Part shown: positions 1 through 21,536 of the stretch, in pieces
How the letters are laid out: each line of letters begins with the position of its first letter
Numbering within the stretch: the stretch's first letter is position 1
NCBI GenBank assembly: GCA_016840855.1
Contig: JAEORO010000041.1
Span: forward strand, 1 to 23,447
DNA: 23,447 bases
Origin: Candidatus Thorarchaeota archaeon
GTDB lineage: Archaea > Asgardarchaeota > Thorarchaeia > Thorarchaeales > Thorarchaeaceae
Direction of reading: 5' to 3'
Notes under the pieces: model-generated
Databases searched by the model: none
What the model saw: only the letters and a program-made list of their open reading frames with translations
Told to the model about the DNA's origin: nothing
Position numbers and translations under genes: made by a program

Positions 1-3000
1 GTAACATTTTCAAGGAAGGGAGTGTTACCTGGCGTCTTGATTATCCGTATCTGCGTAGGACGCTCAACAACGTTTGCTGAGATTGTTCTTAAAGAAGAAC
101 GATAATACGGCGCTCCACTAAATGAAACAGATACATTGAGTTGATAGGTATCTGGAGGACCGAGAGCCGATGTATCGACTTCAATCAGGTATTCACCAAG
201 CCCATTATCAGTAACCCAATAATCAGCTCCAAGCACTAGAGTGAGTGGATCACTACTAACTTGTACTGTTGCTCCAGAGATTCCTGTTCCGGTTGTGTCA
301 TCGCTGTAAGTAATTGTAAATGTTAGAATAGTTAGGTATGGTGCGTTATCTGGACTCTCATATCCAATCTGCGTCGATCTTTCAAGAACAGTGAATGCAA
401 AGTACTCAAAAGCGTCACTTACATACGAAGCGCCACTATAGACTATGCTTGCATTGATGTAATATAATTGAGGTACACCAAGTATTGATGAGTTAATAGT
501 AACTATGAAGTGCCCATCAGCTATTGGAGTTACGCTGTAGGATGCAGGATCCACATCTAAAGTAAGGGCACCTGACATTCCTAATGTACTTCCAGATATG
601 AGATCCGTATAGACAAACTCGATTGTGACATTGTTACCCCACTGACCAGGAGTAAACGGTAGATGCGTCAACTGAGAGCTGCGTAGTAAGACAATTACAA
701 CAAATTGCTGGTTTTGGACATCAGTATAGAAAGGCGCACCATCCCAAGTTAGATTGAGATGTAATGTTATCGGACCCACACCACCCAAGGTTGTGGTGTT
801 AATCACTATGGTAAACTCTTTAGTAATTGCATTAAAGGAATATGACCAATCGACACCTACTTCATTGATATTAATGCTCAACGAGGGAGAATCAGCTATT
901 TTCTTGGTTCGAATCGAATCAACAAAGGAAAATACTAGATCTGCATCCTCACCATAGGAAGTTGGAGGAACTTGAGTATAGTCCACATAGGTTGGTCTTT
1001 CGAGAACCATCAGAAATACATTGATTGTTTGATTCTCGTAGAATGGTAAAGCTCCACTCTTCCATAGAAAGGCAATCTCAACCTCGAACATTCCTATTCC
1101 TTCTAGATTGGTGCTGTTCAGTTGGAAGCTATAATACACGGTCGGACCGTTAATGAGGATTTCAAGGAAGAAATCGTTACCTGTGACTGGATTTGTGCCA
1201 ATTGGTGTGAATGATATTGATACAGCACCTGTGGCATTCGAGATATAGGTGGAATTAATGAGATCATAGTACACAGCCGAGAAAGTGAAATTATCCAAAT
1301 AGTAGGTTGCAACAGGGGCTGTTTCTAGATAAAGATCTGTCTGAGTTCCAACCAATCTAAATGAGGGGTTTAATGATTTGGGCTGAAGCTTCAGTACTGG
1401 TCCCGTCCAACTAATTTGGATTGAGAAGTCTTTCCAACCAACTGTTGACCATTGTGATGTTGGAACAGTGATGTTGTAATGCCCTGACCCTAAATCAGTG
1501 ACTATGTAGGTCAAAGAAGTAATGCCAGGTGTTGTTACAGAGATGTGAATATAGCCAGAGCTGTTATCTATACCAGTACCAAGATCTGTATCAAGATAGT
1601 AAACAAGTATGTAGGTATCAACGCCATAAAATGTCTGCGAAATTGGTTCATCGAGTGTGAACAATGTTGTGTGGGATCTAACAGTTACAGTAATTGAGAT
1701 TGTATGATTTTGCATCATTGCACCTGAGAAGGTCACTTTGACTGCCGAGCTACCGAGAGGTGTCGAATCAGTCGTAAGTATAGTCAGGATATACGTCCCA
1801 GGTGTTGTTTCAAGAATGCTGTATGAACCAGTCCAGTCGCACAAGATTGTATCATTCAAACCAGTCAATGGAGTGTTATGGTCTGCATCTGTCCATTTGA
1901 AGCTCAATGAACGTGCTTCGCCAACTGGTATGTTCACAACGTTCTGCAGATATGTTACCTTTGTGTACAGCTCACGAACCTCAACATAGAGTAGATACTT
2001 TTGAGGTAGGATGTATGGAGCGGTGCCTGTGATCTCAACCACATAGTCACCCATGGCAGTAAATGTCGTGTTCAACCAGAACAAGTAACTACCAGGAGAA
2101 CCAGCTACAGGCGTAACGCTGTAGTAGCTAGACCAGTTACAGTCGAGCGAACCGGTGACAATGGGGGATCCAAGATAGTCTTCGAATCCCATTCTAAATG
2201 AACCATTATATCCATATGGTATTGATAGACCTGGAGAGTCTGGAGCTTCTAATACAAGATTTCCGTCGAAATTGAGGTTTATTGTAAGTACGTCTTGAAC
2301 AGTATCGAAGTGTGGGTGTGTCCATTCAATATTGAGTGTATATTGCCCCTTCTGTGGCAAATCACCAGAGTCAAGAGTAATTAGATACTCTCCATTACCT
2401 CCTTCTCCAAAGTATTTTGTACCTGTTGTCCAGTTATAACTCATCTGTCCACCTGACACAGTAACTCCAGAAATATCAGCATCATTGATGCGTATTCTGA
2501 CCAAGAAAAGATCGGGGTATGTAACATTAGTAATCCATGTCGAAACAGCATCGGTGGGATTCAGTAGAGTTGACGTTGATGCATGAATAATATTGAATGT
2601 TCGCTGGAAGAATCCTGTCTTATTCCAACTAGAACCTCCAATACTGTTGTTACAGAATGCTTGGATAAGCCATTCTCCTGCAGAAGCATTAGTACCAAAC
2701 GTCAACATTCTTGAATTTGCATAACCAGTACTGTTCACAGGAACAATCTCAGAATACCAGCTTGTGCCAGAGGGTGAGAATAAGGTTATGTTTACGTCCA
2801 CGCCTGCAAATTGAGCACCTACATTGACTCCGAAATACGCGGTATCATCAGCCCGAAGATCAACGCTTCTCGCAGAGGTTCCTACCGTGGCACTGGTCAT
2901 GAGTAAGTCTGTGATCATGTTAGCACCTTTACTCTTAATGAGCCAGTACCCCCACCTATCGAGATACGGATATGCAGTGATGTTTGCATACCACTCAGGA

Positions 3001-4388
3001 CCATGTCCCTCATCCCAAGACGAGATGTTCAAAGTTGTAAGTAAAGGCGAACCAACAAAGTACACGTCTCGATTTTCTGGTAAAGAGATATTGAAGTAAT
3101 ATCTGTTGTCATACCCATCAGGTATATCAGCGAAGAACCATGTCATGTATTCAACTACGGTGGAGTTTGTTGTTACAAAATTCTCTCCAAACGCAGATGG
3201 ATCTTGTGTTGTAAGTGTTGTTGATAAAGTCCTAGCGTAGAGATTAGTTTCTACATTGAAGTCAACCCATATATTACGATCTGGATTTGGTGTAGATGGA
3301 GTTGAACTCCAAGAAAAGGACACATCAACTGGACTAGCTGTCCATGTTGGTGATGGGATTTGAGTCACGTTACCTAAACCAGGAATTGATGTACCACCAA
3401 TATCATAATCATTTACATCAAGTCCATTCATTTTTAGGTTGACATCACTCGGATTTGCCTTTGTTTTTAGGTATAGTTCTACATTATCGACGCGGGCATA
3501 TGGGTCAAGATCGGGACTGTAGTTGACTGTTTGTTGGCTATACAAGCCTACCGTTAACATTACACCATCAGACAAATCAAAAAAGGATAAATCAGGCAAG
3601 ACAATTAAACCGCTATCATACCAAGTCTGAACAGCTTCTACTTCACCAAATGATTTCTGCCAAACCCGTTGCGCATAATCATTTGTTTCTATTGAAACAA
3701 ATATGGCTACAAACCCATTTGGTCCCCAAGCTGGATCGGTGTCAATCCAATAGTCAAGCCTAAATCCAGCCCACACAACATCACCTCGATCAACTGTGAA
3801 AGTTTGTTGAGCCCATGCTCGCTCCTCGAAATATGGATCACCACCTTCTGCGATTTCAAACTGAACACAGTCATCACCTACTCCGTGACCATCATTCAAC
3901 CAGGTTGCAGAGGGAGCAGCCCCACCCCCAAGACTTACTTGGTTTAGAGTCCAACTTGAAGGACTATTCTCCATATCTGGATCCTGAACCCAAGTTCTGT
4001 TTTCAGTCAAATCTGTTATTTCAACAAATAGCTCATGGCCTTCCCAGCCAGTCCCAATAGGGACAGCAACTGACGTATTGCTAGTACTACTATTGGATGC
4101 AAAGTATCTCATTTGGTTGTCACTAAAGAAATCACTTCTGTTACCATAAGCTTGAGCAGGTAATCCAGATGAAACACCTGACCACATGGTCCAACCTTGT
4201 TGGGAAAGCGAATAATACGGTTTAGATTCAATTAGAGGAGTTGATACACTTTGTGCTTCTTGAAGGGTCTCTGAATTTGATGGTAATAGGATATTTGAAG
4301 TTTGTAAGATTCCAATTGCATTTAATGTATTAAAGACCATTAGAAATGTGATGAGCATCAAGAATGGTAGTTTAAACTTAGGCTTCAT
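1..4388 (-). CDS. Giant secreted cell-surface protein B (partial, >1462 aa, 3' end beyond the window); paralog of 4385..12094
   Basis: Absent from the ORF track, consistent with having no stop codon in the window. Manual translation from ATG 4388 gives MKPKFKLPFLMLITFLMVFNTLNAIG (signal peptide)...VPIGTGWEGHELFVEITDLTENRTW, matching VPLGPLWEGTDMFINVSDLQENRTW in protein A. The same frame at positions 3-62 reads RPTQIRIIKTPGNTPFLENV, matching RYATISVTRSPLTTPFLEIV in A. SD AGGAGGG lies 8 nt upstream. Confidence 0.95.
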   Translation of the reverse strand, partial: MKPKFKLPFLMLITFLMVFNTLNAIGILQTSNILLPSNSETLQEAQSVSTPLIESKPYYSLSQQGWTMWSGVSSGLPAQAYGNRSDFFSDNQMRYFASNSSTSNTSVAVPIGTGWEGHELFVEITDLTENRTWVQDPDMENSPSSWTLNQVSLGGGAAPSATWLNDGHGVGDDCVQFEIAEGGDPYFEERAWAQQTFTVDRGDVVWAGFRLDYWIDTDPAWGPNGFVAIFVSIETNDYAQRVWQKSFGEVEAVQTWYDSGLIVLPDLSFFDLSDGVMLTVGLYSQQTVNYSPDLDPYARVDNVELYLKTKANPSDVNLKMNGLDVNDYDIGGTSIPGLGNVTQIPSPTWTASPVDVSFSWSSTPSTPNPDRNIWVDFNVETNLYARTLSTTLTTQDPSAFGENFVTTNSTVVEYMTWFFADIPDGYDNRYYFNISLPENRDVYFVGSPLLTTLNISSWDEGHGPEWYANITAYPYLDRWGYWLIKSKGANMITDLLMTSATVGTSARSVDLRADDTAYFGVNVGAQFAGVDVNITLFSPSGTSWYSEIVPVNSTGYANSRMLTFGTNASAGEWLIQAFCNNSIGGSSWNKTGFFQRTFNIIHASTSTLLNPTDAVSTWITNVTYPDLFLVRIRINDADISGVTVSGGQMSYNWTTGTKYFGEGGNGEYLITLDSGDLPQKGQYTLNIEWTHPHFDTVQDVLTINLNFDGNLVLEAPDSPGLSIPYGYNGSFRMGFEDYLGSPIVTGSLDCNWSSYYSVTPVAGSPGSYLFWLNTTFTAMGDYVVEITGTAPYILPQKYLLYVEVRELYTKVTYLQNVVNIPVGEARSLSFKWTDADHNTPLTGLNDTILCDWTGSYSILETTPGTYILTILTTDSTPLGSSAVKVTFSGAMMQNHTISITVTVRSHTTLFTLDEPISQTFYGVDTYILVYYLDTDLGTGIDNSSGYIHISVTTPGITSLTYIVTDLGSGHYNITVPTSQWSTVGWKDFSIQISWTGPVLKLQPKSLNPSFRLVGTQTDLYLETAPVATYYLDNFTFSAVYYDLINSTYISNATGAVSISFTPIGTNPVTGNDFFLEILINGPTVYYSFQLNSTNLEGIGMFEVEIAFLWKSGALPFYENQTINVFLMVLERPTYVDYTQVPPTSYGEDADLVFSFVDSIRTKKIADSPSLSININEVGVDWSYSFNAITKEFTIVINTTTLGGVGPITLHLNLTWDGAPFYTDVQNQQFVVIVLLRSSQLTHLPFTPGQWGNNVTIEFVYTDLISGSTLGMSGALTLDVDPASYSVTPIADGHFIVTINSSILGVPQLYYINASIVYSGASYVSDAFEYFAFTVLERSTQIGYESPDNAPYLTILTFTITYSDDTTGTGISGATVQVSSDPLTLVLGADYWVTDNGLGEYLIEVDTSALGPPDTYQLNVSVSFSGAPYYRSSLRTISANVVERPTQIRIIKTPGNTPFLENV

Positions 4389-7300
4389 TCGTCCATCCCT
4401 CCTATCTCTTCAAGAAGTGCTTCAATCTCCGACTTTGATAGATTCCGGGCTTGTTCTATCATAAGATCGGCTTCGGTTTCTTCAATACCCATCTTAATCA
4501 GACGCTCTCTCAAGTGCAGCAGCTCTTCTTCAGACAGACGTTCTTCAACTACTTCAGATGGCGCGCCTTCTTCCACAATCTTTTCAGCTTCAGCAAGCTC
4601 CCGAGCTCGTCGAGATCGCTCCTGCTTGAGAACTTCGTTGATGAATCCAGCTCGTTCACTTGGTCTCATCTTGTCAAGATCTTGACGTAGAGTGTCAATG
4701 TCATCAGGAGTAAGACCTACTACTGTCGCCAATTGTTCAAGTAGTTGCTCGACATCCATGATGGTTACATCAACTGTTGACAAAGAAATGTCGTCAACGG
4801 TCTTCATAATTCCAACTTTCTTTAGATCCTCATTCATCATTGCTAGAAGCATTGAGCGTCTAAGCGGGACATCTGCGGGCTTTGGTATCATTCTACGTTC
4901 TAGAGTTCTAATCATTCGTCTTATGATACGTAATAATTTCGGCACTGAAAGAACTCTGAAATACAATGCACCTAAAGCTGCGATTAAGAGGACGAGAATA
5001 GTACTGATCCTAAAACCTGAAACCAATGCTTCTTGTTCAGGACTCAAATCTGTGTAGATATCAAACTCAACAGTTGCCGATTGGTAGTCATTTTTACTAA
5101 ATATGATTTGAAGTCTATAATAAGCTAAATCTGGGGCACGGAATGCTAGTGTATACGTGCCATTTCCATGGTTTATATCCAGACTTGTTTCGTGAATAAG
5201 ATCTGAAGTCGCTAAGCTACTTCTTGATACGACGGTTATTTCAGCATCAGAAATTGCTATGGAATGGTCTGTGTCAAAGTAGGTTACGTTAATCAAGAAT
5301 ACACGACCAACAAAAATCAGAGAAGGAAGCGCAGTAGTTGTTAATTCTGTAGCAATCTCCCGAATAGTCAAGAAAAATTCAATTTCACCACGAGAGTAGT
5401 TACCTCGAGATATGGATATTCGTATTTGATAGGGTGAAGCTCTATCCTGCAAAGGTGTGGCTAGATTTGCTTCATCAGGACCAAAAGCGTAGGAGCCATT
5501 GTGAAGGTTAGTCAATTGAACTGTACCAAATTCCCAATAAGCTGTCGCCAGACCATCTTCAATCCATTCACCGTTAAGATCATCCCAGAATCCGAACAGC
5601 ATTGTATAATCATCGTATACAGCAAATTCCGCTTCTAATTCACCCATAATTATTGTTCTAATTGGATTTACAAGAAGCTTCAATAGAGTTGAAGCAAATC
5701 GGAAGTTTTCTTTTCGGAACGAAACTGAAATGTCATGGGGTATACTTCCAGCACGAACTAATGATGTATTCAAAGTAAGAGAGTATGTGCCATTTCCATA
5801 ATCTATGAGAGAACCTTTGAATTGTTCCAAAGTATAGTTGGTAATTGCGCCAGGTATTCCTTCATTAGAATGTGTATCATTGAAGAATAGTCGAAATGTG
5901 ACTTCTTCACCATAATATGCATTGAGAGTTGCGGATGTAATGAGTACAATGTCAGTTTCAACAACCTCAACAGCTAATGTGAATTGAATTGAAGAAGGTG
6001 TATAACCAGGCTTAGCACTTGAAATAATGACTGTCCATTCCTGCACGCCAAGTGGTGTTGTGTCTATAAGCGCGCAATAATAACCGGGTGTTGCAAGTTC
6101 AGATAAATTACCGACTAATGGACCCACACCAAATGATAGAATCGCTTCAGAAACAAAAGTGTTCAAATCTGTGTTGTTAAGGTAGACTGTGATATTTGCC
6201 AAATCACGATAGTTTACAGTCACTATGAAATCTGAAATAGCAATAAGACTTGTAGAAAGTTCTGTAATTTCTATTGTTAGTTGCATGCTTCTGCTCTTGT
6301 AGTTTGCAGAGGATGCTTGAATGAGAATTTGATGAGTTCCCACAGGTACACCTGATACAATAAACTCAACTACATACTTACCATCGAGTACAGACCAGAC
6401 AAGCTGACCAGATCCTCCAATCCAGCTATAGGTTACAAGTCCATCAACTATTGGGGAACTATTGGAGTATAGAAGGTAGTCTATCTCAATTCTGACAGGT
6501 AATCCGTTGACTGTTGAGAGCGGGTCAAGCGAACCTGAAATCTTCGATGCAATTTTATCAATACGTATCTGGAAATCTCTCTGTCTTGTTTCATAATTCA
6601 GTAAGAATGAACTAACTGTAATTGTATATTCACCAGCACCAATTTGCCAGCTCTGGATAGTACAGGTATAAAGGCCACTCCCTACTGATGTCATATTGAC
6701 TGCAATTGAAGATATGGTAAGATTGACATACGCACCATCAATGGGACTTCCATTTCTTGCATCGGTAATATTTGCCTGAAAATCAATAGGATCGCCCCAA
6801 AGTGGATTTGTTGGAACGAATGAAAGCTCTATTTGAACTGGAACTGCAGCTAATAGGATATCCGCTAGAATTGTCTTATTTTGGTGTAGATACTTTGAAG
6901 CAGATATTGAAAATGAATACAACCCTGCATCCATACCGGATGTCTGGATTATCATTTCATATACACCAATATCAATCATGCTTATTGTTGCTATTGTTGG
7001 ATATGTTGAGTTCCAGTTGCTAGTAATGTTGGCATCTGGAATTCCAACACCAAATTCGATTGCAGTGTATGTGATGTTCGCATGAATCTCATCGCCAAGA
7101 TAGTAGATTACCCCCTGCGGGAGCGTGAAACTGAGAGTTGTTGATACTGAATTTACAACAACAGAGAAACTAAGGTTTGTGACATTCGTATAGAATGGAG
7201 TTCCATACCAAGAGATATTGACAGTGAAATAGTATCTCCCTAATCCATACAAAGTTGTGGTATCTACAAGAATCTGATACGTCCCATCTCCTTTATCACT

Positions 7301-10300
7301 AATCCAACTGGTGAAACTCGTTGAATTTACAGAACCAACGGAAACGTCGGCTCCAGCTATACCGCTTCCAGTAAGGTAGTCACTATAATAGATCAGGGTG
7401 CTGATATTGAAGAAATAATATGCTGGAGGTGTTGACAAAACTGAGGCTTGTGTAAATCTCGTCGAGATTGTCACTTGCGTTGTCGTTGTTGAATTATCAT
7501 AATACGGTGTAACATCACCCCAATGGAATAAAATCGTAATTGGATATGCATCAACAAGTTCTGAGGTCAATAGAGTGGAACTAAATGATATTAAGTAAAA
7601 ACCATTCTGATCAGTTAGTGTGTACTCAGAATCAAGAATCTGTGTGCTACCACCATGAGTTAGAGTCAATACAGATTTTGTGAGTGGTATTCTTGTACCA
7701 TTTACATCATCAACTACGGTTATTTGAAACTCGACAATTTCGAGGAAAGGTGTAGTCAGAGGTGATCGAGTTACAGAGATTGTTGCGTATCTTCTTACAA
7801 CATCAATGGAAACATCTATGATTCTGCTCCGGTAGAATGGGACCCCTGCTTTACTTGCTGAAACTGTAATTGTATATTGACCAAAGTTACCGAGAGCAAG
7901 GGTTGAAATTCTTATGCGATAGTCTCCACTTGGGAGGGCATCAACCCAGTAGTTGATTCCTAGCTGGAGTGTTGCATTTACACAGGTCGCAGTTATTGTT
8001 GCTCCAAGAATGGATGCATAGGTGTTATCATCAATGTATGATACAATGATCACAGCTTCCTCTAAGAAAACAGCAAGTGATGGAACTTCGCTCGTTAATT
8101 GAGTTCTTCTCTGAATTAGAGTTAGATAGAAGAAATCGTTGGCATTGTAACAAAAGTTTGTTCCCGTGTAAGCTATGGACGCATTCACTGTAAAGATACC
8201 TAGAGATGGAAAGACGCTTGTATCAAGTGTGACAGTATAAGTACCATCCATATTGTTGTCGACATCATAGAAACCAGTGAGTGATGCGTCAAGCGTCAAT
8301 GTTCCAGTACTCAATAGAGATTGGCCATCAAGATCCCTGTAAGTAAATATGATAATCAATTCATTCCCATATTGAATTGATGTGTATGAGCCATGTTCGA
8401 GATTTGTGTACCGATTCCGTATTGATATGGAAATCTGAATGTTTGTACGATTCTGATAATAGGGAGATCCAGACCATTCAACATCGAGATGGAATGTATA
8501 GGTACCTACATTGTTCCACCATGTAGTATCAAGTGTAAGGACGAACTGCTGAGTACCCGCTAAATATGTTGAAGCAATGAGAAGGCCGACTTCCTGAACT
8601 TCATAGCTAAGTTGTGCATCATCAGGAATTCGTGAACCTGAAAGTACATCAATGTAGGAGAAAGTTAAGTTAACCTCATCACCATATGGGACTGTTGGCA
8701 AGGGACTCCATAACACACTAGTTTGTCGATATCGAGTAAATACTGTTATTGCTAAGGTTCGATTCTCATACAGTGGTAGCTGGCCATCTGTCCAATTTGC
8801 ATAGATACGAAGCTGGCATCCAATAATTCCGCTCAAATAAATAGTGTCAAACGAAATCCGATATTCTCCATTACCTAATTCTGTGATAGCCATTAGACTC
8901 TGCGTTAAGGTTTGCCCAGGTGTCAACACATCTATGAAGAAATGGACATTGAGAGGGTATGCACCTGTGCTATTTGTAACACCTGTACTGTTGCTCACAT
9001 CCCAATACACAACTGAAAATGTAATATTCTCTCCATAAGGCGTTGCAATCGGATTTATACCAATATACAGGTCTGTTGGGCTCCCAGCAACCCTTGCCCG
9101 AACGTTGAGGACCTTATTGTCATGTTTGGGTTGTGGTCCGGTCCAATTCGCATAAACGACAATGTCTTTCCATCCAATTGAGCCCCACTGATCTGCTCCG
9201 ATTCTTATAATGTATTGACCTTGTTGACTTCCATTTACTACAGTGAATTGTAGCAATGGTATTCCAGGAGCTTCTGCATAGATTAGGACATCATTACCAA
9301 TAATGCCAGTTTGGGTAGTGATATCAAAATAAAGGACATAGATTGTGATTTGGCCAGTATATGGTGTGGGTTCAATAGGATTATCCAAAGACAGAGAGGT
9401 TAGGTGGGTGACGATATTAATACCAATATCAAAGGTGTGATTCTGATAAGCAAAACGATTGACATCAAAAACAACTGTAAAACCTTGTATAGGATCAGAA
9501 TCAAGGGAGTTGAAGGTTATATCATACTCTCCAGGAGCACTCATCACGATATTATAATCGGACCAATTACAAGAGATTGAACTCTCAGCACCGGATATTG
9601 GGAGATCATGGTCGGTATCCCAATATGTTAGCGTAATGGTTTCTTGATATCCGACTGGTAATGCCAGAATACTTTGAGATACAGATACAGATGTGAAAAT
9701 TTGTCTAACTTCAACAAAAAGGAGAACCTTCGAAGTGATATAGTAGTCTTTCTGTGCAGTGACAATAATGGCGTAGGTGTCTAGGTCTGAATTGTTAGTT
9801 GTGATTGTCAAAGTGTAATTACCGGGATCTCCAATTACTGGATCGATCGAGTATGATGAGTCAGTCCAATTACAATAAAGAGCAGCATTATCGATACCAT
9901 CACCTTCAGAGTCAGCGTAGAAGAGTTGAAGTATTGCATTATCACCACGTGGAACCTGTACACCAGGTGCACTTGCTGACTTTAGTGTTGTTTTTTCAAC
10001 AACATTGATGACAAAGAATCGTTGAAGAGGGTCAAAATACGTTTTACTCCAAGTTATGCTAATCACATAGCGTCCCGGAAGCCCTAAGTCTCCGGTATTA
10101 AGAACGACACTATACTCCCCTGTGCCCATATCATTTAGAGGATGGGTGCCTGTTGTCCAATTATATGAGGCAGACCCCCCAGGTAGTAGGAATCCATTAT
10201 CTGAATCGTTAACACCAATTTGGAGAAGCATGTCCTGACCATATGTAAGATTTCGTTCCCATGTCAGTATTGATTCTCTGGGATAGGCAATGTACATGTC

Positions 10301-12236: not shown

Positions 12237-14390
12237 TTATATCGTACACGACATCACTTTTCTTTTCATAGCATAAACTCCAAGAGCAATTACGATGCAA
12301 GCTGTCGTTGCAGCTATAACTAGTGGAAATAGCCAATCAGGAGGATTCTGTACTTGAGCGAGAATGTTTCTTCTCGCCACATTCATACCCCAGTCCCATG
12401 CTTCAATCCAAATTGTCAGATTTGAAGTGTGACTAGGCACTTGAGCTATCACGGTCCAATTGTTTCCGTTAAAAGACATCGGAAATGCCTTGATGGCGCC
12501 TTCGTCAGCTTGGATATATAATGTAACATTTTCAATACCAGAAAAGTCATCAGTCACATATGTCCAACAAAGAAACTCTTCAGATTCTACTTCTTCAGGT
12601 ATTGTTCCCCACGCATGAATCACAGGGGGAACCAGGTCTGAGATAGAAAAAAGGTATCGTCTAATCCAATCTTTGGCAACTAAAAGTGCATCATAAGTTC
12701 CACGCCAATCCATCTCATTGTAGCATACTTGTGCAATTTCAAAGGCGTTGGATACATGCTGTTCAGCAAATTCGGTTTCAGGTCTATCTTCTGTTGTAAG
12801 TGGTCTATTCAAAAATTCTTCCCAGAGTCCTCCTTCCATCTGATCTAAATATGTGCTCTGAACCCAGTTCTTGTCAAAGGTTGATGTCCCATTGTGGTAA
12901 GCAAAATAGCCCATTGGCCCCCATGAAAAATCACTTGAATAATGTTCATGCTGCCATGAATGATGAAACCCGATTGCATGCATAGTTTCATGAAGTTGTA
13001 CTGATGATATCCCATCTTTGGGTGTTACACCATCAGATCGATAATACCGTTCCCATGATTTCCAAATGACAGTTTGACCATCCCCTCCTAACCCGGTGAA
13101 TGTTCCGTTATACGCATGCATCTCCATCTGTTTCTTGATGAAAACAACTCCAAACACTGTGATATTACCATCTTCAACCACGTATGCGGGTTTCATAGAA
13201 TTGTAGATTGCATAAAACATGTCAGTACCATTAACAACAGTAGTTCCATCAGGTTCAATGGCTGCATAAGTCCAGAATAGTGAATTCCAGAGAGGTTCTT
13301 TGTCAATATCGTAATAGTCAATATCGACAGTCCAATCAATAAATGGATAGAGCTCTTCAAGGTGAGACTTTTGCATTTCTGAGTTTGTAATCCATTCAAG
13401 ACTTTCAATAGATGTTCCATTTGCTACATCCATGCAAAACACGAGAGACTTCAAGGTTCCTGTAGAAACATAACTGGCAGGTTGATGTTGGTACGGGAAG
13501 AATAGTTGTGTAATTGGATCCCAGATACACTCCCTCAAGTACACATTGAGAGCATCAACATCTACAGGAATTGTCAAATTCAGAGTTCCCACTTTGTCCT
13601 CGAGGTCTTGAGTCCAGAAATCATACTCTGTACCGATATTTTCACTCCACCAAATTCGACACCATTTCAAATACCATTGGTGAGCACTAGGGTCTATAAT
13701 GTATGAGTTGTAACGTCCACCAAAGAATGGATGGTCCATAGTAACATTGGGATTGAGTGCATTATCCCATTCTAAACGGAACCAATCTTGTTCTTCTCCT
13801 GTATCAGGATCAACAGGATGGTAGTCATACCAATGCTCGAGACTGTGATCAGCACTATCAAATGTAGAGAAGTTAACAAGGTATAGTGTGTATCCCGGAT
13901 TTGGAGGAAGCACGAATGGATTTTCCTCTAGCCAATCTTCAACGGCATAACCATCAATAACACGACCATCTCGAGGAAAGAATATCCTTTGTGGCTCATC
14001 AGGGTTATTCTTTTGGTAGGACAGCGCAGTCTCATCAAGTCTAGTTCCTGTGCTAGTCCCATTCTTTGAATTATCTTGCATCACTTGGCGAAGTTCATCA
14101 AAATAGCTGTTGTCTGCATAATAGATGTTATAGTTGATAGTATATGTAATTTCAGCAGTATCAGTAGCGTAGTATCTGACTGTAGGTAACCCCTGTAGCA
14201 GAATCGGCTCATCAATCATAGTTGGATTATACCCCACCACTATGATATTAGCATACCAATCTCTCACAATCGGGATAGGTTCTGGAGGAGGAAGATAAAT
14301 TTCAGTACTTCTTGGAATAGGTCTTTCAATAACAGCAGGAACTGTGACTAAAAGGAGAAATACAATGCCAAGAACAAGAGTGGTACGCAT
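12237..14390 (-). CDS. Secreted, C-terminally membrane-anchored metzincin-type zinc metalloprotease (717 aa)
   Basis: Signal peptide MRTTLVLGIVFLLLVTVPA. HETMHAIGFHHS fits HExxHxxGxxH (12960-12992). Candidate Met-turn WGPMGY. Ig-like DLVPPVI...IEAWDWGMN domain. C-terminal TM LFPLVIAATTACIVIALGVYAM followed by KRK. Confidence 0.88.
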   Translation of the reverse strand: MRTTLVLGIVFLLLVTVPAVIERPIPRSTEIYLPPPEPIPIVRDWYANIIVVGYNPTMIDEPILLQGLPTVRYYATDTAEITYTINYNIYYADNSYFDELRQVMQDNSKNGTSTGTRLDETALSYQKNNPDEPQRIFFPRDGRVIDGYAVEDWLEENPFVLPPNPGYTLYLVNFSTFDSADHSLEHWYDYHPVDPDTGEEQDWFRLEWDNALNPNVTMDHPFFGGRYNSYIIDPSAHQWYLKWCRIWWSENIGTEYDFWTQDLEDKVGTLNLTIPVDVDALNVYLRECIWDPITQLFFPYQHQPASYVSTGTLKSLVFCMDVANGTSIESLEWITNSEMQKSHLEELYPFIDWTVDIDYYDIDKEPLWNSLFWTYAAIEPDGTTVVNGTDMFYAIYNSMKPAYVVEDGNITVFGVVFIKKQMEMHAYNGTFTGLGGDGQTVIWKSWERYYRSDGVTPKDGISSVQLHETMHAIGFHHSWQHEHYSSDFSWGPMGYFAYHNGTSTFDKNWVQSTYLDQMEGGLWEEFLNRPLTTEDRPETEFAEQHVSNAFEIAQVCYNEMDWRGTYDALLVAKDWIRRYLFSISDLVPPVIHAWGTIPEEVESEEFLCWTYVTDDFSGIENVTLYIQADEGAIKAFPMSFNGNNWTVIAQVPSHTSNLTIWIEAWDWGMNVARRNILAQVQNPPDWLFPLVIAATTACIVIALGVYAMKRKVMSCTI

Positions 14391-14723: not shown

Positions 14724-16160
14724 ATGACCCTAACTAAGAAACCCTCTATTGCTGAAATTCTGGACATAAAGTCAGTTGCAGTTGTCGGTGTATCTCCCAA
14801 CTTTGGCTACTACTGGGTATACTCAATGCTTCAATGGGAACACAACCTCAGGCTCTGGTTCATTTCTAGGCGAGGCGGCGAAATTCTAGGCCATAAGATA
14901 TTAACACAGATAGATGAAATCCCTGAGAAAATAGACTATGCAATCATTCGCGTTCCATATACGATCGTTCCTCAAACTTTGAGAGAGTGCTACAAACAAG
15001 GCGCGAAGGCTGTGACCATTTTTACTAGTGGATTTTCTGAATTAGGGACTGAAGAGGGCATGGAGCGAGAGAATGAGATTCGCAGGATACTGGATGAAAC
15101 AGGAATGAGGGCATTTGGTCCAAACTGCATGGGCTTGATGTACCCTAAAATTGGATTTGCATTTATGCCTACAATCAAAAGGTTGGCTGGAAACGTAGGA
15201 TTCCTTTCGCAATCGGGAGGTGTCGCAATCACCACCTATACAGCAGGTGTGGAATCAGGTGTAGGCTTTAGTAAAGTGTTCAGTTTTGGAAATCAGGTAG
15301 ATATAACTCCTCAAGAACTTCTAGATTTCTTTCGAGAGGATGCTGAAACAGAGGCAATTGGAGCATATTTAGAGGGAGTCAAGAATGGCAAGAAAATCCT
15401 AGATTCAATGAAGAAGCTGGCAGATAGAAAACCAATCGTCGTTTTGAAAGGTGGAAGGTCAACAGAGGGGTCTCGAGCAGCTGCCTCACATACTGGAGCA
15501 CTTGCTGGCAGCAGAGAGATATGGCAGGCAGCATTCCGCCAAGCAAATGTTGTAACAGTTAATACTGTCGAAGATTTGGTTGCTACTTTGAGTATTTTCT
15601 CTCTAAGCCCAAAACCAAAGACACGAAATGTGGGGCTCATCGCAATTAGTGGTGGAGCTAGTGTAATTCTAACAGATCTTTGCATTGAGAAGGGGCTCAA
15701 TGTGCCAAGGACTTCGGATGATACAATTAAAAAACTGGACCCACTAATTCTCGATGTTGGTACAGGTTTGGGGAATCCTATAGATCTTGCTGCGGATTAT
15801 TATCAAGATCAGACTACATCAGAAGTAATACGAATCGCTGGAGAAGATACAAACTTTGATTCATTGATAATCGAAGCTGATGTACATAATATGCATCAAG
15901 TAGCGACTATAATGGATGCAGCCGATGTACTAGTCGATTATTGGAAAGTTATGGCAAAGGCTGCGAAGACAGTCGTGAAAACGAAAAACAAACCAGTTCT
16001 AGTTGTCATTCCTGAAGTGGCATATCCAATTCCAAGAAATGACGCATGGAATATTTTTGTCGATCATGGACTTCCTGTATTTAGAAATATAACAGAAGCT
16101 GTAAGTGCTTTGTCCCGAGTTTGTGATTACTACGAAACCAAGGAAGAGCGAACGAATTAA
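14724..16160 (+). CDS. Acyl-CoA synthetase (ADP/NDP-forming) alpha-subunit-like CoA-binding protein (478 aa)
   Basis: KSVAVVGVS CoA-binding start, FTSGFSELG, GPNCMG, SQSGG, SFGNQVDI, YLEG, KGGRS, AASHTGALAG (phospho-His loop) and NPIDL. No ATP-grasp domain. Confidence 0.92.
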   Translation: MTLTKKPSIAEILDIKSVAVVGVSPNFGYYWVYSMLQWEHNLRLWFISRRGGEILGHKILTQIDEIPEKIDYAIIRVPYTIVPQTLRECYKQGAKAVTIFTSGFSELGTEEGMERENEIRRILDETGMRAFGPNCMGLMYPKIGFAFMPTIKRLAGNVGFLSQSGGVAITTYTAGVESGVGFSKVFSFGNQVDITPQELLDFFREDAETEAIGAYLEGVKNGKKILDSMKKLADRKPIVVLKGGRSTEGSRAAASHTGALAGSREIWQAAFRQANVVTVNTVEDLVATLSIFSLSPKPKTRNVGLIAISGGASVILTDLCIEKGLNVPRTSDDTIKKLDPLILDVGTGLGNPIDLAADYYQDQTTSEVIRIAGEDTNFDSLIIEADVHNMHQVATIMDAADVLVDYWKVMAKAAKTVVKTKNKPVLVVIPEVAYPIPRNDAWNIFVDHGLPVFRNITEAVSALSRVCDYYETKEERTN

Positions 16161-16162
16161 TA

Positions 16163-16771
16163 CTATACCTTAACAATCCAAGTCACTAGTTCAGCGTTCA
16201 TTGAGTTTTCATTAATGAATGAATCTCGATAAGTAGGATTACTAAGTGCAAACCAAACATATTGCATTTCAAAATCAAAGCCAATAATTTTGAATGATGC
16301 TTCTAGAGCGGATGGTTGAAATGAAACGTAAACGAAAACGAGTGAAAGAATGAGAATGAGTAAGTAAGAATAAACCCAAGAGCTTACTGGTCGTCCAGCC
16401 CAATAGTCAGCACCTGCATAGAAAAGAGCAAAAATCGAAGCACCAGCTACAATTGAAGCAATGATTGTGGAAAGACTTCGCATCCTCATTTCTGCATTAT
16501 CTGAAATCGAATGATCTTCGCATACTTCCACAAGGAAACTTTTACTCATATCGTTTGTTTGATGGTTTTTCCCATATGGATTCAAATAAGAGTCCAAGCC
16601 AGGACGAAGCCAAATCTTATGTCCAGGATTTGCAAATATTCGCGTAGTTTTGGACGTCTGAGCTCCACAGACAGGACATATTTTTGGAAATCTAACTCTA
16701 CTAACCTTTGTTCTTACGATTGGTTCATCGAAATAAAGCCGATGTCTTGGTAGAGTCAAAGGTTTCATCAC
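16163..16771 (-). CDS. Hypothetical membrane protein with a CxxC...CxxH zinc-finger-like motif and two TM helices (~201 aa; start GTG 16771 or ATG 16768)
   Basis: CPVC and CEDH motifs. Hydrophobic segments IIASIVAGASIFALFYA and VYSYLLILILSLVFVYVSF. Confidence 0.8.
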   Translation of the reverse strand: MMKPLTLPRHRLYFDEPIVRTKVSRVRFPKICPVCGAQTSKTTRIFANPGHKIWLRPGLDSYLNPYGKNHQTNDMSKSFLVEVCEDHSISDNAEMRMRSLSTIIASIVAGASIFALFYAGADYWAGRPVSSWVYSYLLILILSLVFVYVSFQPSALEASFKIIGFDFEMQYVWFALSNPTYRDSFINENSMNAELVTWIVKV

Positions 16772-16835
16772 CAGCTGTGATTAGCTTCGAAAATGGGTAA
16801 TTTAGTCTATCGAAGAAGGTAACTATTTTAAGACT

Positions 16836-17966
16836 TCATAAATAGGCTTTTTCGATTTCATTAATGACATATTTTCTCATGCTTCGAGAAGTGACGAGTG
16901 GATGTTTAAGTTGAACATCCTGCAAAGATTCAACTTCCTGCGTTTTCAACGAAAATCCAAGGTCTGCAAAACTTGCTTTTACTTTTTCAAGTCCAACACC
17001 AAAGTGTTTTATCCCGACATTCAATGCTTCAAGAATCTTGTATCCATAATGAGTCAACCAAAGAGAATTCAAAAGAGAAGTACTTCCTTTGGTAAATACC
17101 ACAGTATTTTCGATTTCTTTAGCTCTCGCTTCGACGATCTTGGGGATGAGTTTTGATGCGCTTGTTTCTTCCATGGCTTCTGTATCTAGAAAGAGGGTTG
17201 GACCGTTTCTTGATATCTGTTCATCAAGAAGCTCCACAGTACGATTGAAGATGACTTTTCTTGCAGTTCTATAATCCATAGAAGCCTTAGTCGTGTCCAA
17301 GATTTTAGAGGGGTCACCATCGAAACCTGCAAGCTCCTTCATGCCTAGTCCAATTAAGAGACCTCGTTGAACACTATACCAGTTATCTTCTGTGATATGT
17401 TCTAAAACAGACAGGATTCTATCTTGAATGTGAGTCCATCCCATGTTCCTAGCTAAGTCATCATATAACGCCCACATTAAAACTGGAGGCGCGGTCCATG
17501 GAGCTTTATCCGGTCGAACAAGTAAGAAACGTTTAGCTAATTCTTTAGATGTAAAAAAGAAGCGGAAAATATTGTCAGCAGACAAGACCACAGATGAATC
17601 AAGCATCACACTTGAGTGCGTAAATATTGGAGTAACATCCAAAGTCTGTAGGCGATTCTGAGTTAGAATTATTTTTTCTAGCCCGGAGCATCGGACTAGT
17701 GGCCAAAGATTAAGAGAAACCAAATGGTTATTCTCCAAATGAATTTCTGATATGGTTTTGTTTTTTGAGAGAGGGCTAAGTTCAAGTTCCTCAATCATGT
17801 TATTTGCTAAATTTAAGGCAGTTAGTTTTTCACATCTTTCGACATCAGAGAGGTCGACTTTCTTTGCTGCTCTCGTTGTGAGGTCGATCTTCGTGTCCGC
17901 ACAGTGGAATTTCCTTTCTTCTTGACGTCCATGAGGACTCCAGTACCTGATAGAAATTTCGTCCAT
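16836..17966 (-). CDS. Cytoplasmic leucine-rich repeat protein (376 aa) with an uncharacterised helical C-terminal region
   Basis: LxxLxLxxNxI/L repeats: LTALNLANNMIEELELSPL, ISEIHLENNHLVSLNLWPL, LEKIILTQNRLQTLDVTPI. No signal peptide or TM. Confidence 0.88.
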   Translation of the reverse strand: MDEISIRYWSPHGRQEERKFHCADTKIDLTTRAAKKVDLSDVERCEKLTALNLANNMIEELELSPLSKNKTISEIHLENNHLVSLNLWPLVRCSGLEKIILTQNRLQTLDVTPIFTHSSVMLDSSVVLSADNIFRFFFTSKELAKRFLLVRPDKAPWTAPPVLMWALYDDLARNMGWTHIQDRILSVLEHITEDNWYSVQRGLLIGLGMKELAGFDGDPSKILDTTKASMDYRTARKVIFNRTVELLDEQISRNGPTLFLDTEAMEETSASKLIPKIVEARAKEIENTVVFTKGSTSLLNSLWLTHYGYKILEALNVGIKHFGVGLEKVKASFADLGFSLKTQEVESLQDVQLKHPLVTSRSMRKYVINEIEKAYL

Positions 17967-18035
17967 TTTTAGCTCGACCGAGAGCTTGTAATCAAGATTC
18001 GTAATATATGAAATCTATCTAAGCAGATTCCAACT

Positions 18036-21000
18036 CTAATCTTCAGTTTCATGGGGAGAAGGAAGTTTGGAACTAGCAGCAATTAGATACCCATTATCAA
18101 TTGCCTCTAGAGTGCATTTGTAAGCCGTTCTTTCACTGTGCCCCAGTACACTTATTGATTTGATTATTGCATCTACAGAAACACCATGGTCGATATCCAT
18201 TGACTCAAGCGCTTCTGAAACGACGCTAAGGTGTTTTGGTATACTCTTTGAAACACCAACATATCTTTTCATAAGCTGACCATCAAAATGATTGTCAAAA
18301 ATTGCGTAAAAGGACCCATTTAGGGTTGGAGTTCTAACCATTTTTCGAATTGCTTCATCCTCTTTATCATAGAGACCTCCGACCTCACTTCCGAAAGCCT
18401 CTAGCTGAGCTTTCTGTCTACTCGACGCGGGTTCGATTGTTACTATAGCACAAATCAGTGCCTCGGTCTGAACAGCAGTGATTACCTCAGTGATTGGAAT
18501 TGCAGTCCAAATTGGCTCATCCATGGAGAATTCAGATCGAAACTGAGATATTGCAGAAATTAAGGAGCTTAGTAGAGATTCCTGAAAACCTCCCTTTAGT
18601 ATGTTTGAATAAACTGGCAAACCAATTGATCGATGTATCACAAGCAATCCAATCAAATTCCTTGCATCATCAATACGGCCTTTCAGATCCAGTAATTCCA
18701 AGTTCCTTTTAGCTGTTGAAGACATATAGAAACGGCGGCCTACGGTAATTGCTGTGAATGAAATTAAGACAAGAAAACCTCCAACCAAGCCAGCTCTGAA
18801 AGTAACGTCGTATAGAGATTCAGGATTTGGAATTTCAATATTGATTTCCGTACTACTGCTTTCAAAATATGGTAATGATACTTCTACTAAAATTACAAAA
18901 TTCCCGGTGCCAATTGAAGTTGTATTAAAATCAGCCTCCCACCAGCCTTTCGCTAGATTGGGATTGAATTTCACATTGCTTATGGTCCAGTTGCCAATCA
19001 CATCAGCACCGCTTAAAATTGGATTACCATTATCTTGATCATAAAGATAGACTTCTGCCGTGAATCCTTCTCCTGATTCAATTTTCTTGTTAGGAGCGTT
19101 GGCAAAAACGGTCAATCTATGATATAGTTCAAAAGTTGCTGAACTATAAGCAACCTCAGTACCATTAGTCCATAAGATGGACACCATCCAAGCTCCGATT
19201 GAGGCATTAGTCGGACCCAATGTAGCTCCCTGACTAACAACTTCAGAACCATTTGAATTTCTAACTTCTTCACTCATCCAAATGCCGCCAGATGGAGTAT
19301 ACCAGCTCAACTCGACACTACTTTCATTTGGGATGAGTTGTACATCACTACCAAACAATGCTCTACATCTAATTCTGTCACCACTGTGGAATTCAGATTC
19401 TGCAGTCCATGGTAACCCGGAGGGACTTTCGACTTCCGTAGAAATGGAATCGGCATAGTTGATTCCATCCATCATGATTTTCCACCAGCCTACAGAGTCA
19501 ATTACTCCCGAAGGAATCTCAAGATAACCTGACTCAACGATAGCCTGACTAGAAACATCACTACCGAAGGGACTCTCCACTCTAGGATTTTCCCAGTCAA
19601 GAGGATAATACATTCTTATACCAATATCTTTTGCTTCAGTGTATGATTTTATGTATGTGTACATGGTGAATTCTGGTATAAGATCAAGTTCCACACTATA
19701 TGAAACACCTTCATTCTGAAGATTGTTTGAATACGTGGAGTTGCAAAAGCGTGTCATTTTTGTTATCGATACCATGTATTCAAAGGAAATGCTTGAGTTT
19801 GATGAGAAAAATAACGAGTTTGATGACTTCCACCAATAACTATTATTCAATGTTATTTCACCAATCCCATTACTACCAGAAATAGGGAGGCTTCCAAGTG
19901 GTGTAATGTTAATGGTGAGATCCACGGTATCTGGGTCCGGCACTTGGTTTGCTCTCAGCGATAAATCATCAATCAGTAGAGTTATGAATCTTCCATTTGT
20001 CGGATCTCCATCCAAATCAGGATCTGTTTCTGAAATCTGAACATAGCTAGAGTTTGTATTAACTTCTAAGGATATGCGAATTTGAAATGTTTGAGGAGCA
20101 TCTGGAATAGTGAAGGGAATCCGGTTTGTGTTATACCATATCCCCCTCTGCGTAATGTTAGTTGGATCTGTTGACCAGCTCCATAACATATCTGAACCAT
20201 TTAGGACCACAAAGCTAAATCTGAAAATATCACTATAGCTCGTACCAATAGGTCCTCGTTGGTACAGGTAACTCATACTAAACTCAAACTGTTCAGTTAA
20301 TCGACTATTGTCAACATTTTGATACCAATAGATTTTCGTACCATCATAATGACGATATCCATTTGGAGAGGTTACCTCATATCCCTCATTCTCTATCCCA
20401 ATGTATTTTGGATCTGTATTAATGTACGATGCACGTTGATATCCATGGTAATCAAGATATTCTCTTCTCGCACGCCAACCTTCTGCGTAATAAACTGCAT
20501 CACCACTCCAATCCACAGCTGTGCCAGGGTTTCCACTTTCAAAGGTTCCATTTAATGCGTGAAGAATCTGTAGTTCTCGAACATCAACCTCAATTTGTTC
20601 AGCTCTCCATCCACCGTCTCCAGTAATGACATCAATGCTGAATGAATAGCTTCCTGAAGGAACAAGATTTGCACTTCCTACAGAATCAGTCAAGTCACCC
20701 TCGAATTCATAATAATGAGTCAAACCATCTTCTGTACCAGAGAGTGACTTATTGTAGTCACTCTTTATATCTTCCAAACTCCTCGCTATATTGTAGTATC
20801 GAAAATCGTCCACATGACCGTCAACTTGACCATTGGTGTATGCTCTAGAATTCATGATATTGTTCTCGGTATGGAGTCCAACAACAGAATCAGGCCATGC
20901 TAGCAAAGAAGCATCCTCAAAAGGTTCAGTTACCTCATCACCACAGTAGATTCTAAGAAAGTTTGCAGATTGATCCCACACGATTGAAATGAAGTACCAG

Positions 21001-21536
21001 TTATCTGGAATCCAATCATTCTTTGTTCCAAATAGAGTGTTATCTGAGCCCCAGTCGAGTACTAATCTACTTCCTGAAAAGCGAGTTTCGAAATTACCAT
21101 TTTGACCCCAGAATCGACCATGTGGAGCAGTCACATCCCATTTAATCCATAATGAAATAGTTCCCTCGGGTGAACCAAAATTAGCTGAGCCACCAAGGCC
21201 AACCATAAAATAGCCACCACTACAATCTGCCGAGCGAGTGTTACTCTCGGAACCTGCGGGAAACAGTACTTCAGCACAAGGATTATGCTCAGAGTCGGTC
21301 CTACTGGTAACATACTGCGCTGTTCCAGATGGAGCTCCAGTATGCTCTATGAGAATTGGATTCAGATACCCAGTCTCAGGTCTCACATCATAACTAACAC
21401 TTTGCGGGTTATTCTTTTCCAGTAGGGTAAAATTTGTTATTTGAGAAAAGGTGTTCCGATAAACAAGTGGGATTATTGGCACCCATGCTAGCATAAGTAT
21501 AATTGATAGTAGCTTAGCTACATGGGCCTTTTTCAA
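18036..21536 (-). CDS. Single-pass receptor-like protein C (~1166 aa from TTG 21536): signal peptide, LamG/ConA-like domain, A/B-family head, one Ig-like repeat, TM, cytoplasmic longin-like and winged-helix-like domains
   Basis: GGAGGT lies 6 nt before TTG 21536, giving MKKAHVAKLLSIILMLAWVPIIPLV. LamG motifs: TISLWIK, NWYFISIVWD, GHVDDFRYYNIARSLEDI. TM AGLVGGFLVLISFTAITV-GRR. Longin-like IGLLVIHRSIGLPVYS...LLSSLISAISQFRSEF. C-terminal AYKCTLEAIDNGYLIA. Confidence 0.9.
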   Translation of the reverse strand: MKKAHVAKLLSIILMLAWVPIIPLVYRNTFSQITNFTLLEKNNPQSVSYDVRPETGYLNPILIEHTGAPSGTAQYVTSRTDSEHNPCAEVLFPAGSESNTRSADCSGGYFMVGLGGSANFGSPEGTISLWIKWDVTAPHGRFWGQNGNFETRFSGSRLVLDWGSDNTLFGTKNDWIPDNWYFISIVWDQSANFLRIYCGDEVTEPFEDASLLAWPDSVVGLHTENNIMNSRAYTNGQVDGHVDDFRYYNIARSLEDIKSDYNKSLSGTEDGLTHYYEFEGDLTDSVGSANLVPSGSYSFSIDVITGDGGWRAEQIEVDVRELQILHALNGTFESGNPGTAVDWSGDAVYYAEGWRARREYLDYHGYQRASYINTDPKYIGIENEGYEVTSPNGYRHYDGTKIYWYQNVDNSRLTEQFEFSMSYLYQRGPIGTSYSDIFRFSFVVLNGSDMLWSWSTDPTNITQRGIWYNTNRIPFTIPDAPQTFQIRISLEVNTNSSYVQISETDPDLDGDPTNGRFITLLIDDLSLRANQVPDPDTVDLTINITPLGSLPISGSNGIGEITLNNSYWWKSSNSLFFSSNSSISFEYMVSITKMTRFCNSTYSNNLQNEGVSYSVELDLIPEFTMYTYIKSYTEAKDIGIRMYYPLDWENPRVESPFGSDVSSQAIVESGYLEIPSGVIDSVGWWKIMMDGINYADSISTEVESPSGLPWTAESEFHSGDRIRCRALFGSDVQLIPNESSVELSWYTPSGGIWMSEEVRNSNGSEVVSQGATLGPTNASIGAWMVSILWTNGTEVAYSSATFELYHRLTVFANAPNKKIESGEGFTAEVYLYDQDNGNPILSGADVIGNWTISNVKFNPNLAKGWWEADFNTTSIGTGNFVILVEVSLPYFESSSTEINIEIPNPESLYDVTFRAGLVGGFLVLISFTAITVGRRFYMSSTAKRNLELLDLKGRIDDARNLIGLLVIHRSIGLPVYSNILKGGFQESLLSSLISAISQFRSEFSMDEPIWTAIPITEVITAVQTEALICAIVTIEPASSRQKAQLEAFGSEVGGLYDKEDEAIRKMVRTPTLNGSFYAIFDNHFDGQLMKRYVGVSKSIPKHLSVVSEALESMDIDHGVSVDAIIKSISVLGHSERTAYKCTLEAIDNGYLIAASSKLPSPHETED

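Follow-up and report, generated by a model that had tools for sequence, protein, structure and literature searches.

In a 23,447-nt stretch of the Candidatus Thorarchaeota contig JAEORO010000041.1 (the window, by which we mean this whole stretch), three large proteins, here called A, B and C, constitute a modular family of type I membrane proteins with a common head, stalks of graded length and conserved cytoplasmic tails. Their genes belong to the eight open reading frames (ORFs) of at least 190 aa that we considered in the window, seven of which lie on the minus strand and one on the plus strand. A first-pass annotation of this DNA had proposed a mix-and-match family that couples cell-surface binding to cytoplasmic machinery; its observation was confirmed in essentials, while its interpretation was borne out in part, the structural portion standing. 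We think it probable that A, B and C are paralogous, single-pass, N-glycosylated surface proteins whose heads bind outside the cell and whose conserved tails dock cytoplasmic partners. Unless the 1218-aa numbering is stated, residues of C are numbered on its 1166-aa form; coordinates of all features are collected in Table 1.

A common head on stalks of graded length

A and B aligned over 1496 columns at 33% identity (756 bits) and are clear paralogues. By BLASTP, A matched C only between A447-688 and C703-944 (1218-aa numbering; 25% identity, E 2e-10), and B matched C at E 1e-5. For profile comparison we gathered 61 A/B-family and 102 C-family proteins. Using hhalign, the A/B head (41 sequences) matched the C family (48 sequences) with Prob 98.7 and E 4.2e-16 over 552 columns, pairing A110-705 with C307-909. 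Most of this score was contributed by the third head domain (A446-605 versus C651-808, E 2.6e-15) and the first stalk repeat; the N-terminal half of the head, compared alone with these narrow profiles, was weak (E 1.4e-3). When the C-head profile was widened with 53 more divergent representatives that have complete heads, taken from the C-tail search described below, the whole head of A matched that of C with Prob 99.7 and E 2e-25, and the N-terminal half alone reached Prob 98.3 and E 1.2e-14. Taken singly, domain 1 (A95-310 versus C295-534) matched at E 1.7e-9 and domain 2 (A306-450 versus C530-650) at E 5e-7. As controls, off-register comparisons gave E 0.04-0.5 across the profile tests and 0.04-0.16 with the widened profile. 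In addition, a hidden Markov model (HMM) of the A/B head directly matched six representatives of the C-tail family, the best at E 3e-14. Since each head domain was separately significant, we take the head to be homologous domain by domain, and this profile evidence argues that the A/B and C heads share ancestry.

The resemblance could instead reflect chance or composition shared by unrelated β-rich proteins, as might be suspected from the roughly 250 aa that BLASTP sees at 23-25% identity and from the poor score of the N-terminal half with narrow profiles. Against this stand the separate significance and collinearity of the three domains, set beside the off-register values, and the direct matches of the A/B head HMM to tail-family representatives. 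We rejected chance resemblance on the per-domain significance and regard it as hardly credible. The first-pass annotation had described a collinear head in all three proteins and quoted six pairs of A and C motifs in its favor; all six pairs are aligned to each other in the profile alignment, but the last (beginning NDSDNG) falls in stalk repeat 1 rather than in the head.

An AF2 model of A85-710 (24-row alignment, pLDDT 87.2) was all-β and separated into units at model residues 1-222, 237-360, 370-520 and 529-615, the last of these being stalk repeat 1. In front of its head, C carries a LamG domain that is absent from A and B (Pfam, 34.8 bits versus a cutoff of 27.6, E 2.2e-8). Apart from this domain, nothing exceeded the cutoffs in Pfam searches with A, B and both tails or in NCBIfam searches with the eight full-length window proteins; the head matched no adhesin domain in either collection, and profile searches of PDB sequences with the A-family and C-family profiles returned nothing meaningful. 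As the first-pass annotation had suspected in recognizing no known system, no characterized family matched A, B or C in Pfam, NCBIfam or PDB profile searches, and the homologues are all annotated "hypothetical."

The stalks are built of Ig-like repeats. Seeded with A699-798 and iterated to convergence, a repeat HMM recovered 26 domains, of which 17 lie in A (aa 616-2333), 8 in B (aa 622-1422, the window ending at aa 1462) and 1 in C (aa 819-887), with a period of 95-117 aa. These counts agree with those proposed earlier (about 17 in A, at least 8 and the start of a ninth in B, and 1 in C). The repeats of A are 10-34% identical to one another (mean 20.5%), and the first was modeled by AF2 as a 7-strand sandwich. 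Over the aligned core, four of the eight B repeats were closest to the A repeat at the same position, and the remaining four scored nearly as high there or best elsewhere. A tandem-repeat scan of the window detected no DNA-level tandem repeat in the stalk of A or B, which argues that the array is old; the scan returned only one 33-base repeat, inside the head region of C. No Pfam repeat family exceeded its cutoff for the stalk repeats. C-family paralogues of about 1560 and 1840-1870 aa bear the same tail as C, so stalk length varies within the C type too. At ~4 nm per Ig-like domain, the rod would measure roughly 4 nm in C versus 70 nm in A.

In A, C and a neighboring 717-aa protein, a hydrophobic signal-like segment stands at the N terminus and a single further strong transmembrane (TM) helix near the C terminus, with an R/K-rich stretch after each TM helix; B also begins with a signal-like segment. 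A borderline hydrophobic segment in A (aa 1742-1760) is absent in most orthologues. N-X-S/T sequons occur in the ectodomains at 2.36 (A), 2.44 (B), 1.79 (C) and 1.80 (717-aa protein) per 100 aa, ~1.4 to 2.5 times the expectation from composition; the corresponding figures are 0.43-0.51 in the tails and 0.21-0.53 in three neighboring proteins described below (LRR, ACD and PALP). Because of the signal peptides, the positive-inside TM helices and the restriction of sequon enrichment to ectodomains, we place the N-terminal parts outside and the tails in the cytoplasm. By these indicators A, B and C are type I membrane proteins with cytoplasmic tails, the topology originally suggested for them.

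Two kinds of cytoplasmic tail

The C tail (244 residues, 41-row alignment) was modeled by AF2 with pLDDT 84.5 and pTM 0.77. The model runs from a TM/juxtamembrane helix through a β-β-α-β-β-β-α unit (E39-46, E52-57, H63-80, E90-92, E97-101, E105-111 and H117-134) into a helix/strand domain. The top Foldseek matches in the PDB were AP-2 sigma (E 5.6e-4, target-normalized TM-score [TMt] 0.56), zeta-COP, Sec22b (TMt 0.61), VAMP7, Mon1-Ccz1 and Fuzzy-Inturned, and the TMt of the longin matches was 0.53-0.64 over ~125 residues. Roadblock chains (Ragulator, Prometheoarchaeum Roadblock2 9jq8) ranked below the longin matches at E 8e-3 and TMt 0.40-0.48; the roadblock order is α-β-β-α-β-β-β, and the helix ahead of β1 in the C tail model is the TM/juxtamembrane helix. 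GATOR1 and SEA chains were among the lower matches (E about 1e-2, rmsd 11-13 Å, 245-293 columns). We conclude that the C tail, as modeled, contains a longin-fold domain with the element order of that fold class. A search of PDB sequences with the C-tail profile found nothing meaningful. Among 47 orthologues the longin domain is the most conserved part of C, with a median identity of 70% versus 46-59% for parts of the ectodomain.

The helix/strand domain that follows (H179-190, H199-208 and H213-225 plus short strands) was modeled at pLDDT 83-95 for most of its length, with dips at the interdomain linker and the disordered C-terminal end; it yielded no match to a known fold. The first-pass annotation had called the C tail longin-like plus winged helix-turn-helix (wHTH)-like. 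Its longin half agrees with the model; the wHTH label was not established, no wHTH protein appearing among the 49 C-tail Foldseek matches listed and no HTH family matching in Pfam.

Within the 2600-aa A subfamily, identity reaches 69-72% in the A-type tail, compared with 35-45% in the head domains. This tail was found only in the A/B family: 75 matches fell on shorter proteins, and all nine that we checked were C-terminal fragments starting mid-stalk. The A tail had been thought to be duplicated, an idea left unsupported by its hhalign self-match (E 0.039, not significant). For B, whose gene is cut by the window edge, we turned to orthologues. P0056 (2626 aa) and P0057 (2584 aa) both carry the A-type tail, that of P0057 at 38% identity (E 5e-42), so B very probably has it as well and the tails are of two types, not three. 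The claim that the three proteins end in different tails thus applies to A and C, but B would share its tail type with A.

Separately, P0158, P0160 and P0161 share only LamG with C and have, after the TM helix, a different ~200-aa tail that is unrelated to the A or C tails by BLASTP; this would add a third type of tail, here joined to a LamG ectodomain.

How the proteins may work and what they resemble

In the reading that we favor, the N-terminal signal peptide would export each protein, and the membrane-distal head of three β-sandwich domains, the first of them jelly-roll-like, would be the likely ligand- or glycan-binding part. The number of Ig-like repeats, from 1 in C to 17 in A, would set the distance from head to membrane. 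A single TM helix would hold the protein, which would end in a conserved cytoplasmic tail, either the charged ~190-aa segment of A and B or the longin-fold domain and small α/β domain of C. We infer that the heads bind external surfaces, partner cells or polymers and that the tails, whose conservation equals or exceeds that of the ectodomains (and is highest in the longin domain), dock cytoplasmic partners. By analogy with longin/roadblock domains, the likeliest partner of the longin tail would be a dimerizing platform for a small GTPase or an adaptor. Surface binding, or adhesion, would thereby be tied to positioning, sorting or signaling inside. Processing or shedding of the ectodomains may fall to a zincin-like extracellular protein that is conserved with them, and a leucine-rich repeat (LRR) protein whose gene immediately follows C is a candidate for a partner in the cytoplasm.

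Several observations weigh against this reading. When the four-domain A head model was searched with Foldseek in the PDB, the matches were all generic multi-sandwich ectodomains, at TM-scores of 0.13-0.22, and included a phage lambda tail-tip protein, the Nitrosopumilus S-layer protein 8c8l (E 2e-9), the archaeal S-layer protein 7ptp, PrgB 8beg, RPTPmu 2v5y, EphA4 4m4p, SraP 4m00, Bap 7c7u and RTX adhesin repeats 6xi1. For the C tail, only two Foldseek matches reach E ≤ 1e-3, and the Pfam longin models matched neither C nor its tail orthologues apart from one of 21 (Fuz_longin_1, E 0.06). The A-type tail had no match in Pfam, PDB profiles or the ESM Atlas, hence no fold assignment. Among 38 ORFs flanking six loci there was no GTPase, roadblock or kinase gene except for a histidine-kinase-type ATPase beside the L021 paralogue. 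Finally, the gene cluster around C includes the housekeeping genes PALP and ACD, so its conserved order may in part be a mark of common descent within a single lineage and not of function.

The S-layer matches bear on a different explanation, in which A, B and C are structural cell-envelope proteins that build an S-layer-like or glycocalyx coat of graded height, with tails that only anchor or space. Such a coat would suit the high sequon density and the large size of proteins conserved across Thorarchaeota. It would also suit cultured Lokiarchaeia, which are reported to have no ordered S-layer and numerous complex, unidentified surface proteins (PMC9834061). The S-layer matches are nevertheless generic Ig-chain similarities (TM-score 0.13). 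Anchoring alone leaves unexplained why the best-conserved stretch of C, and of A as well among its more divergent orthologues, should lie in cytoplasmic tails of 190-233 aa, and a coat sits poorly with several paralogues of very different lengths per locus. We consider this explanation unlikely, although its chance of being right is appreciable.

Several known systems resemble the family in part. Fibrillar adhesins and other Ig-repeat surface proteins (SraP, Bap, PrgB, RTX) likewise combine a distal binding module, a tandem Ig-like rod of variable repeat number and a cell anchor, and A, B and C have the tandem stalk, terminal head and anchor of that architecture, adhesion itself being putative. 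They differ in that the anchor is one TM helix with a conserved cytoplasmic domain of 190-233 aa, the head has no Pfam or NCBIfam adhesin match, and the repeats are old (~20% identity) and below every Pfam repeat cutoff. Archaeal S-layer glycoproteins such as Nitrosopumilus SLP (8c8l) share chains of Ig-like sandwiches, likely N-glycosylation and a place on the archaeal surface; A, B and C differ from them in their long conserved cytoplasmic tails and graded stalks, and the structural similarity is generic only. Metazoan jelly-roll adhesion receptors (Eph 4m4p, RPTPmu 2v5y), which stood high among the Foldseek matches of the A head model, also have a jelly-roll head, sandwich spacers, one TM helix and a cytoplasmic effector domain. 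At TM-scores of about 0.2, and with no kinase or phosphatase in A, B or C, this is an analogy that implies no common ancestry.

For the C tail, the nearest comparisons are longin proteins. The longin domains of eukaryotes (the AP sigma/mu N-terminal domain, zeta-COP, Sec22b, VAMP7, Mon1-Ccz1) have the same β-β-α-β-β-β-α fold, but they have no detectable sequence similarity to the C tail, whose longin comes after the membrane-spanning helix in a surface protein of type I, with no SNARE motif and no coat-subunit context. Asgard longin/roadblock proteins are described as dimeric, soluble GTPase platforms and counted among the Asgard "eukaryotic signature" proteins (PMC10933270); the word "transmembrane" does not appear in that paper. 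The preprint of Liu et al. (10.1101/2020.10.19.343400) describes an NPRL2-like family in most Thor metagenome-assembled genomes, and "transmembrane" has no occurrence in its text. By description, which is the basis of this comparison, those proteins pair a longin with a small C-terminal domain, as the C tail does; NPR2/NPR3 models of Pfam matched none of 21 C-tail members. Full-text literature searches listed no paper that describes the A/B/C family or a membrane-anchored longin tail on a surface protein.

The family offers concrete, conserved candidates for Thorarchaeal surface fibrils. In it a longin-fold domain, a type with membrane-traffic roles in eukaryotes, is attached directly to the cytoplasmic side of a surface protein. 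The surface proteins of cultured Asgard archaea are credited with the cell-cell contacts on which models of eukaryote origin draw (PMC9834061), and the question of whether Asgard trafficking-type domains talk to the cell surface becomes testable. We give a slim chance to a bolder version of the favored reading, in which C-type proteins would be archaeal adhesion receptors whose membrane-proximal longin domains dimerize when ligand engages and draw in either a small GTPase or a coat-like adaptor, the LRR protein perhaps taking part, so that contact with a partner cell or particle leads to local membrane remodeling or sorting. If true, receptor-coupled membrane traffic would have had a prokaryotic forerunner in the lineage closest to eukaryotes.

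The gene cluster and the wider family

Table 1. Features of the 23,447-nt window, in order of position
Feature	Position (nt)	Strand	Description
Gene B	3..4388	-	First 1462 aa, cut by window edge: signal peptide, head, 8 repeats and start of ninth
B head	2556..4097	-	About aa 98-611; aligned to A95-605
Gene A	4385..12094	-	2569 aa: signal peptide, head, 17-repeat stalk, TM helix, A-type tail
A-type cytoplasmic tail	4388..4960	-	~190 aa, charged, highly conserved
A transmembrane helix	4961..5029	-	aa 2356-2378; R/K-rich segment after it
A stalk	5096..10249	-	aa 616-2333; 17 Ig-like repeats of ~100 aa
A head, three β-sandwich domains	10280..11812	-	aa 95-605; D1 jelly-roll-like 95-310, D2 311-450, D3 451-605; AF2
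717-aa zincin-like protein	12237..14390	-	Type I membrane protein, extracellular zincin-like motif, C-terminal TM helix
Acetate-CoA ligase (ADP-forming) alpha-subunit-like gene (ACD)	14724..16160	+	Pfam/NCBIfam scans; syntenic neighbor
202-aa protein (TM202)	16163..16771	-	CPVCG...H zinc-ribbon-like N terminus (CxxC...H), hydrophobic C-terminal half
376-aa LRR protein	16836..17966	-	LRR aa 25-128 and unassigned 250-aa domain; 69 nt downstream of C
Gene C	18036..21536	-	1166 aa from TTG 21536; mechanical ORF reaches ATG 21692
C tail C-terminal helix/strand domain	18078..18359	-	aa 1060-1153; AF2
C tail longin-type domain	18369..18656	-	aa 961-1056; β-β-α-β-β-β-α; AF2 and Foldseek
C transmembrane helix	18738..18794	-	aa 915-933
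C single stalk repeat	18876..19082	-	aa 819-887; repeat HMM E 5e-19
C head	19113..20654	-	aa 295-808; profile homology to A/B head
C LamG/ConA-like domain	20763..21185	-	aa 118-258; Pfam Laminin_G_3
PLP-dependent cysteine-synthase-like gene (PALP)	21770..23275	-	501 aa

The true start of C is most likely TTG 21536, because GGAGGT lies 7 nt upstream, the resulting protein begins with a signal-like helix, and many C orthologues are 1166 aa long. The database prediction for C on this contig, P0062, is 1218 aa, its start probably being placed too far upstream. The stop codon of A and the start codon of B overlap as ATGA (4385-4388); the two giant genes are therefore probably co-translated by translational coupling. 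An Rfam scan of the window gave no match.

A genome scan keyed on LamG patterns, the locus counts of which cover LamG-bearing loci, found 34 loci, 26 of them Thorarchaeal-type C-family loci; we excluded L007, whose C gene is broken by a run of Ns. Read with C on the plus strand, the order PALP, C, LRR, TM202, ACD (opposite strand), zincin-like and A is kept across Thorarchaeota genomes. Of the 20 loci with an examinable interval, 16 have the LRR gene directly after C. It stands 4.5 kb from C in L014, after three inserted metabolic or transport genes, and is absent in three long-paralogue loci (L018, L019 and L021), of which L018 and L021 also lack the upstream PALP gene. All 11 loci that reach far enough have an A-family gene downstream, and seven of them have the zincin-like gene; the gene for the 202-aa protein, which matched no family, follows the LRR gene in 14 loci. 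The PALP protein is 79-86% identical across loci, and PALP and ACD look metabolic though embedded in a surface-protein cluster; ACD is probably outside the system.

The first-pass annotation had placed a membrane-anchored metzincin and an LRR protein between A and C. The interval in fact holds four genes (zincin-like, ACD, 202-aa and LRR); the LRR assignment proved correct, and the TM anchor and zinc motif of the putative metzincin were found, the metzincin assignment itself deriving from the motif. That motif, HETMHAIGFHH (nt 12960-12992), conforms to HExxHxxGxxH, with H467, E468, H471, G474 and H477 invariant in 8 of 8 orthologues, as is the Met of PMGYFA 16 residues after the third His. The 717-aa protein had no match in Pfam, NCBIfam or PDB profiles, and the ESM Atlas gave its own Thorarchaeal cluster plus weak leads (PF12044 at score 0.76). 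For the 376-aa protein, an 18-orthologue profile searched against the PDB matched the Roco LRR 5il7 (E 1.4e-22) and also internalin A over aa 25-128, the single-sequence Pfam LRR match being below cutoff. It has no signal peptide and no TM helix and is predicted to be cytoplasmic.

With an extracellular zincin-motif protein conserved in the cluster, a LamG/ConA-like domain in C and a jelly-roll-like first head domain, A, B and C might instead be substrate-capture devices for feeding, the jelly-roll and LamG modules binding detrital polysaccharide or protein and the neighboring metalloprotease digesting it. Paralogue loci adjoin genes for peptide ABC-transporter binding proteins and MFS transporters, as such a function would suggest. 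However, the zincin gene is missing in 4 of the 11 loci that keep C, LRR and A, neither Pfam nor NCBIfam assigned any of the three proteins to a glycoside hydrolase or peptidase family, and capture needs no conserved cytoplasmic domains. We regard feeding as an improbable role and continue to favor adhesion with a link to partners in the cytoplasm.

Among 1.84 billion cluster representatives, a profile built from 21 C tails matched 177 at E ≤ 1e-3, 125 at ≤ 1e-10 and 104 at ≤ 1e-30, and among the 150 matches listed the tail is C-terminal or near-terminal. Of 146 new representatives, 84 are at least 600 aa long; 59 of the 84 have the C-type head, which in 49 is complete and starts at residues 7-130, and none of the 84 has LamG or the A-type tail. 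Tail-bearers with a complete head and intact N terminus span 1070-2342 aa. Since none of these has LamG, the basic plan is signal peptide, head, variable stalk, TM helix and longin tail, and LamG is an addition in C. Four more distant proteins with the tail (P0289, P0295, P0296 and P0301; about 1950-2050 aa) have a TM helix, a signal-like N terminus in three of the four, and Big_1/macroglobulin-type Ig domains without the C-type head. In P0297 (1021 aa, no TM helix detected), a longin segment akin to that of the C tail (E 7e-6) occurs with an FG-GAP/BBS2-BBS7-like propeller, DDRGK and PCI, an unusual combination of eukaryote-like domains within one protein. Together these indicate that the longin tail class has been reused on other architectures.

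Named homologues of the A/B and C families come from Thorarchaeota, Sifarchaeia or unclassified Promethearchaeota, with one partial entry labeled Odinarchaeota. This points to an Asgard origin, as had been surmised for the window.

Some A-family members (2875-2923 aa; P0023, P0024, P0028, P0030, P0042, P0050 and P0052) have an NHL-type six-bladed propeller between signal peptide and head; two of the loci that encode such proteins, L010:17153-23485 and L011:16989-23336, are without a zincin-like gene. The remaining 8 of the 34 loci in the genome scan (L026 and L028-L034, from Bathyarchaeia, Hodarchaeota and one Promethearchaeota record) share only LamG, 42-48% identical to that of C and set within otherwise unrelated large proteins, and the LamG module may be common to different archaeal lineages.

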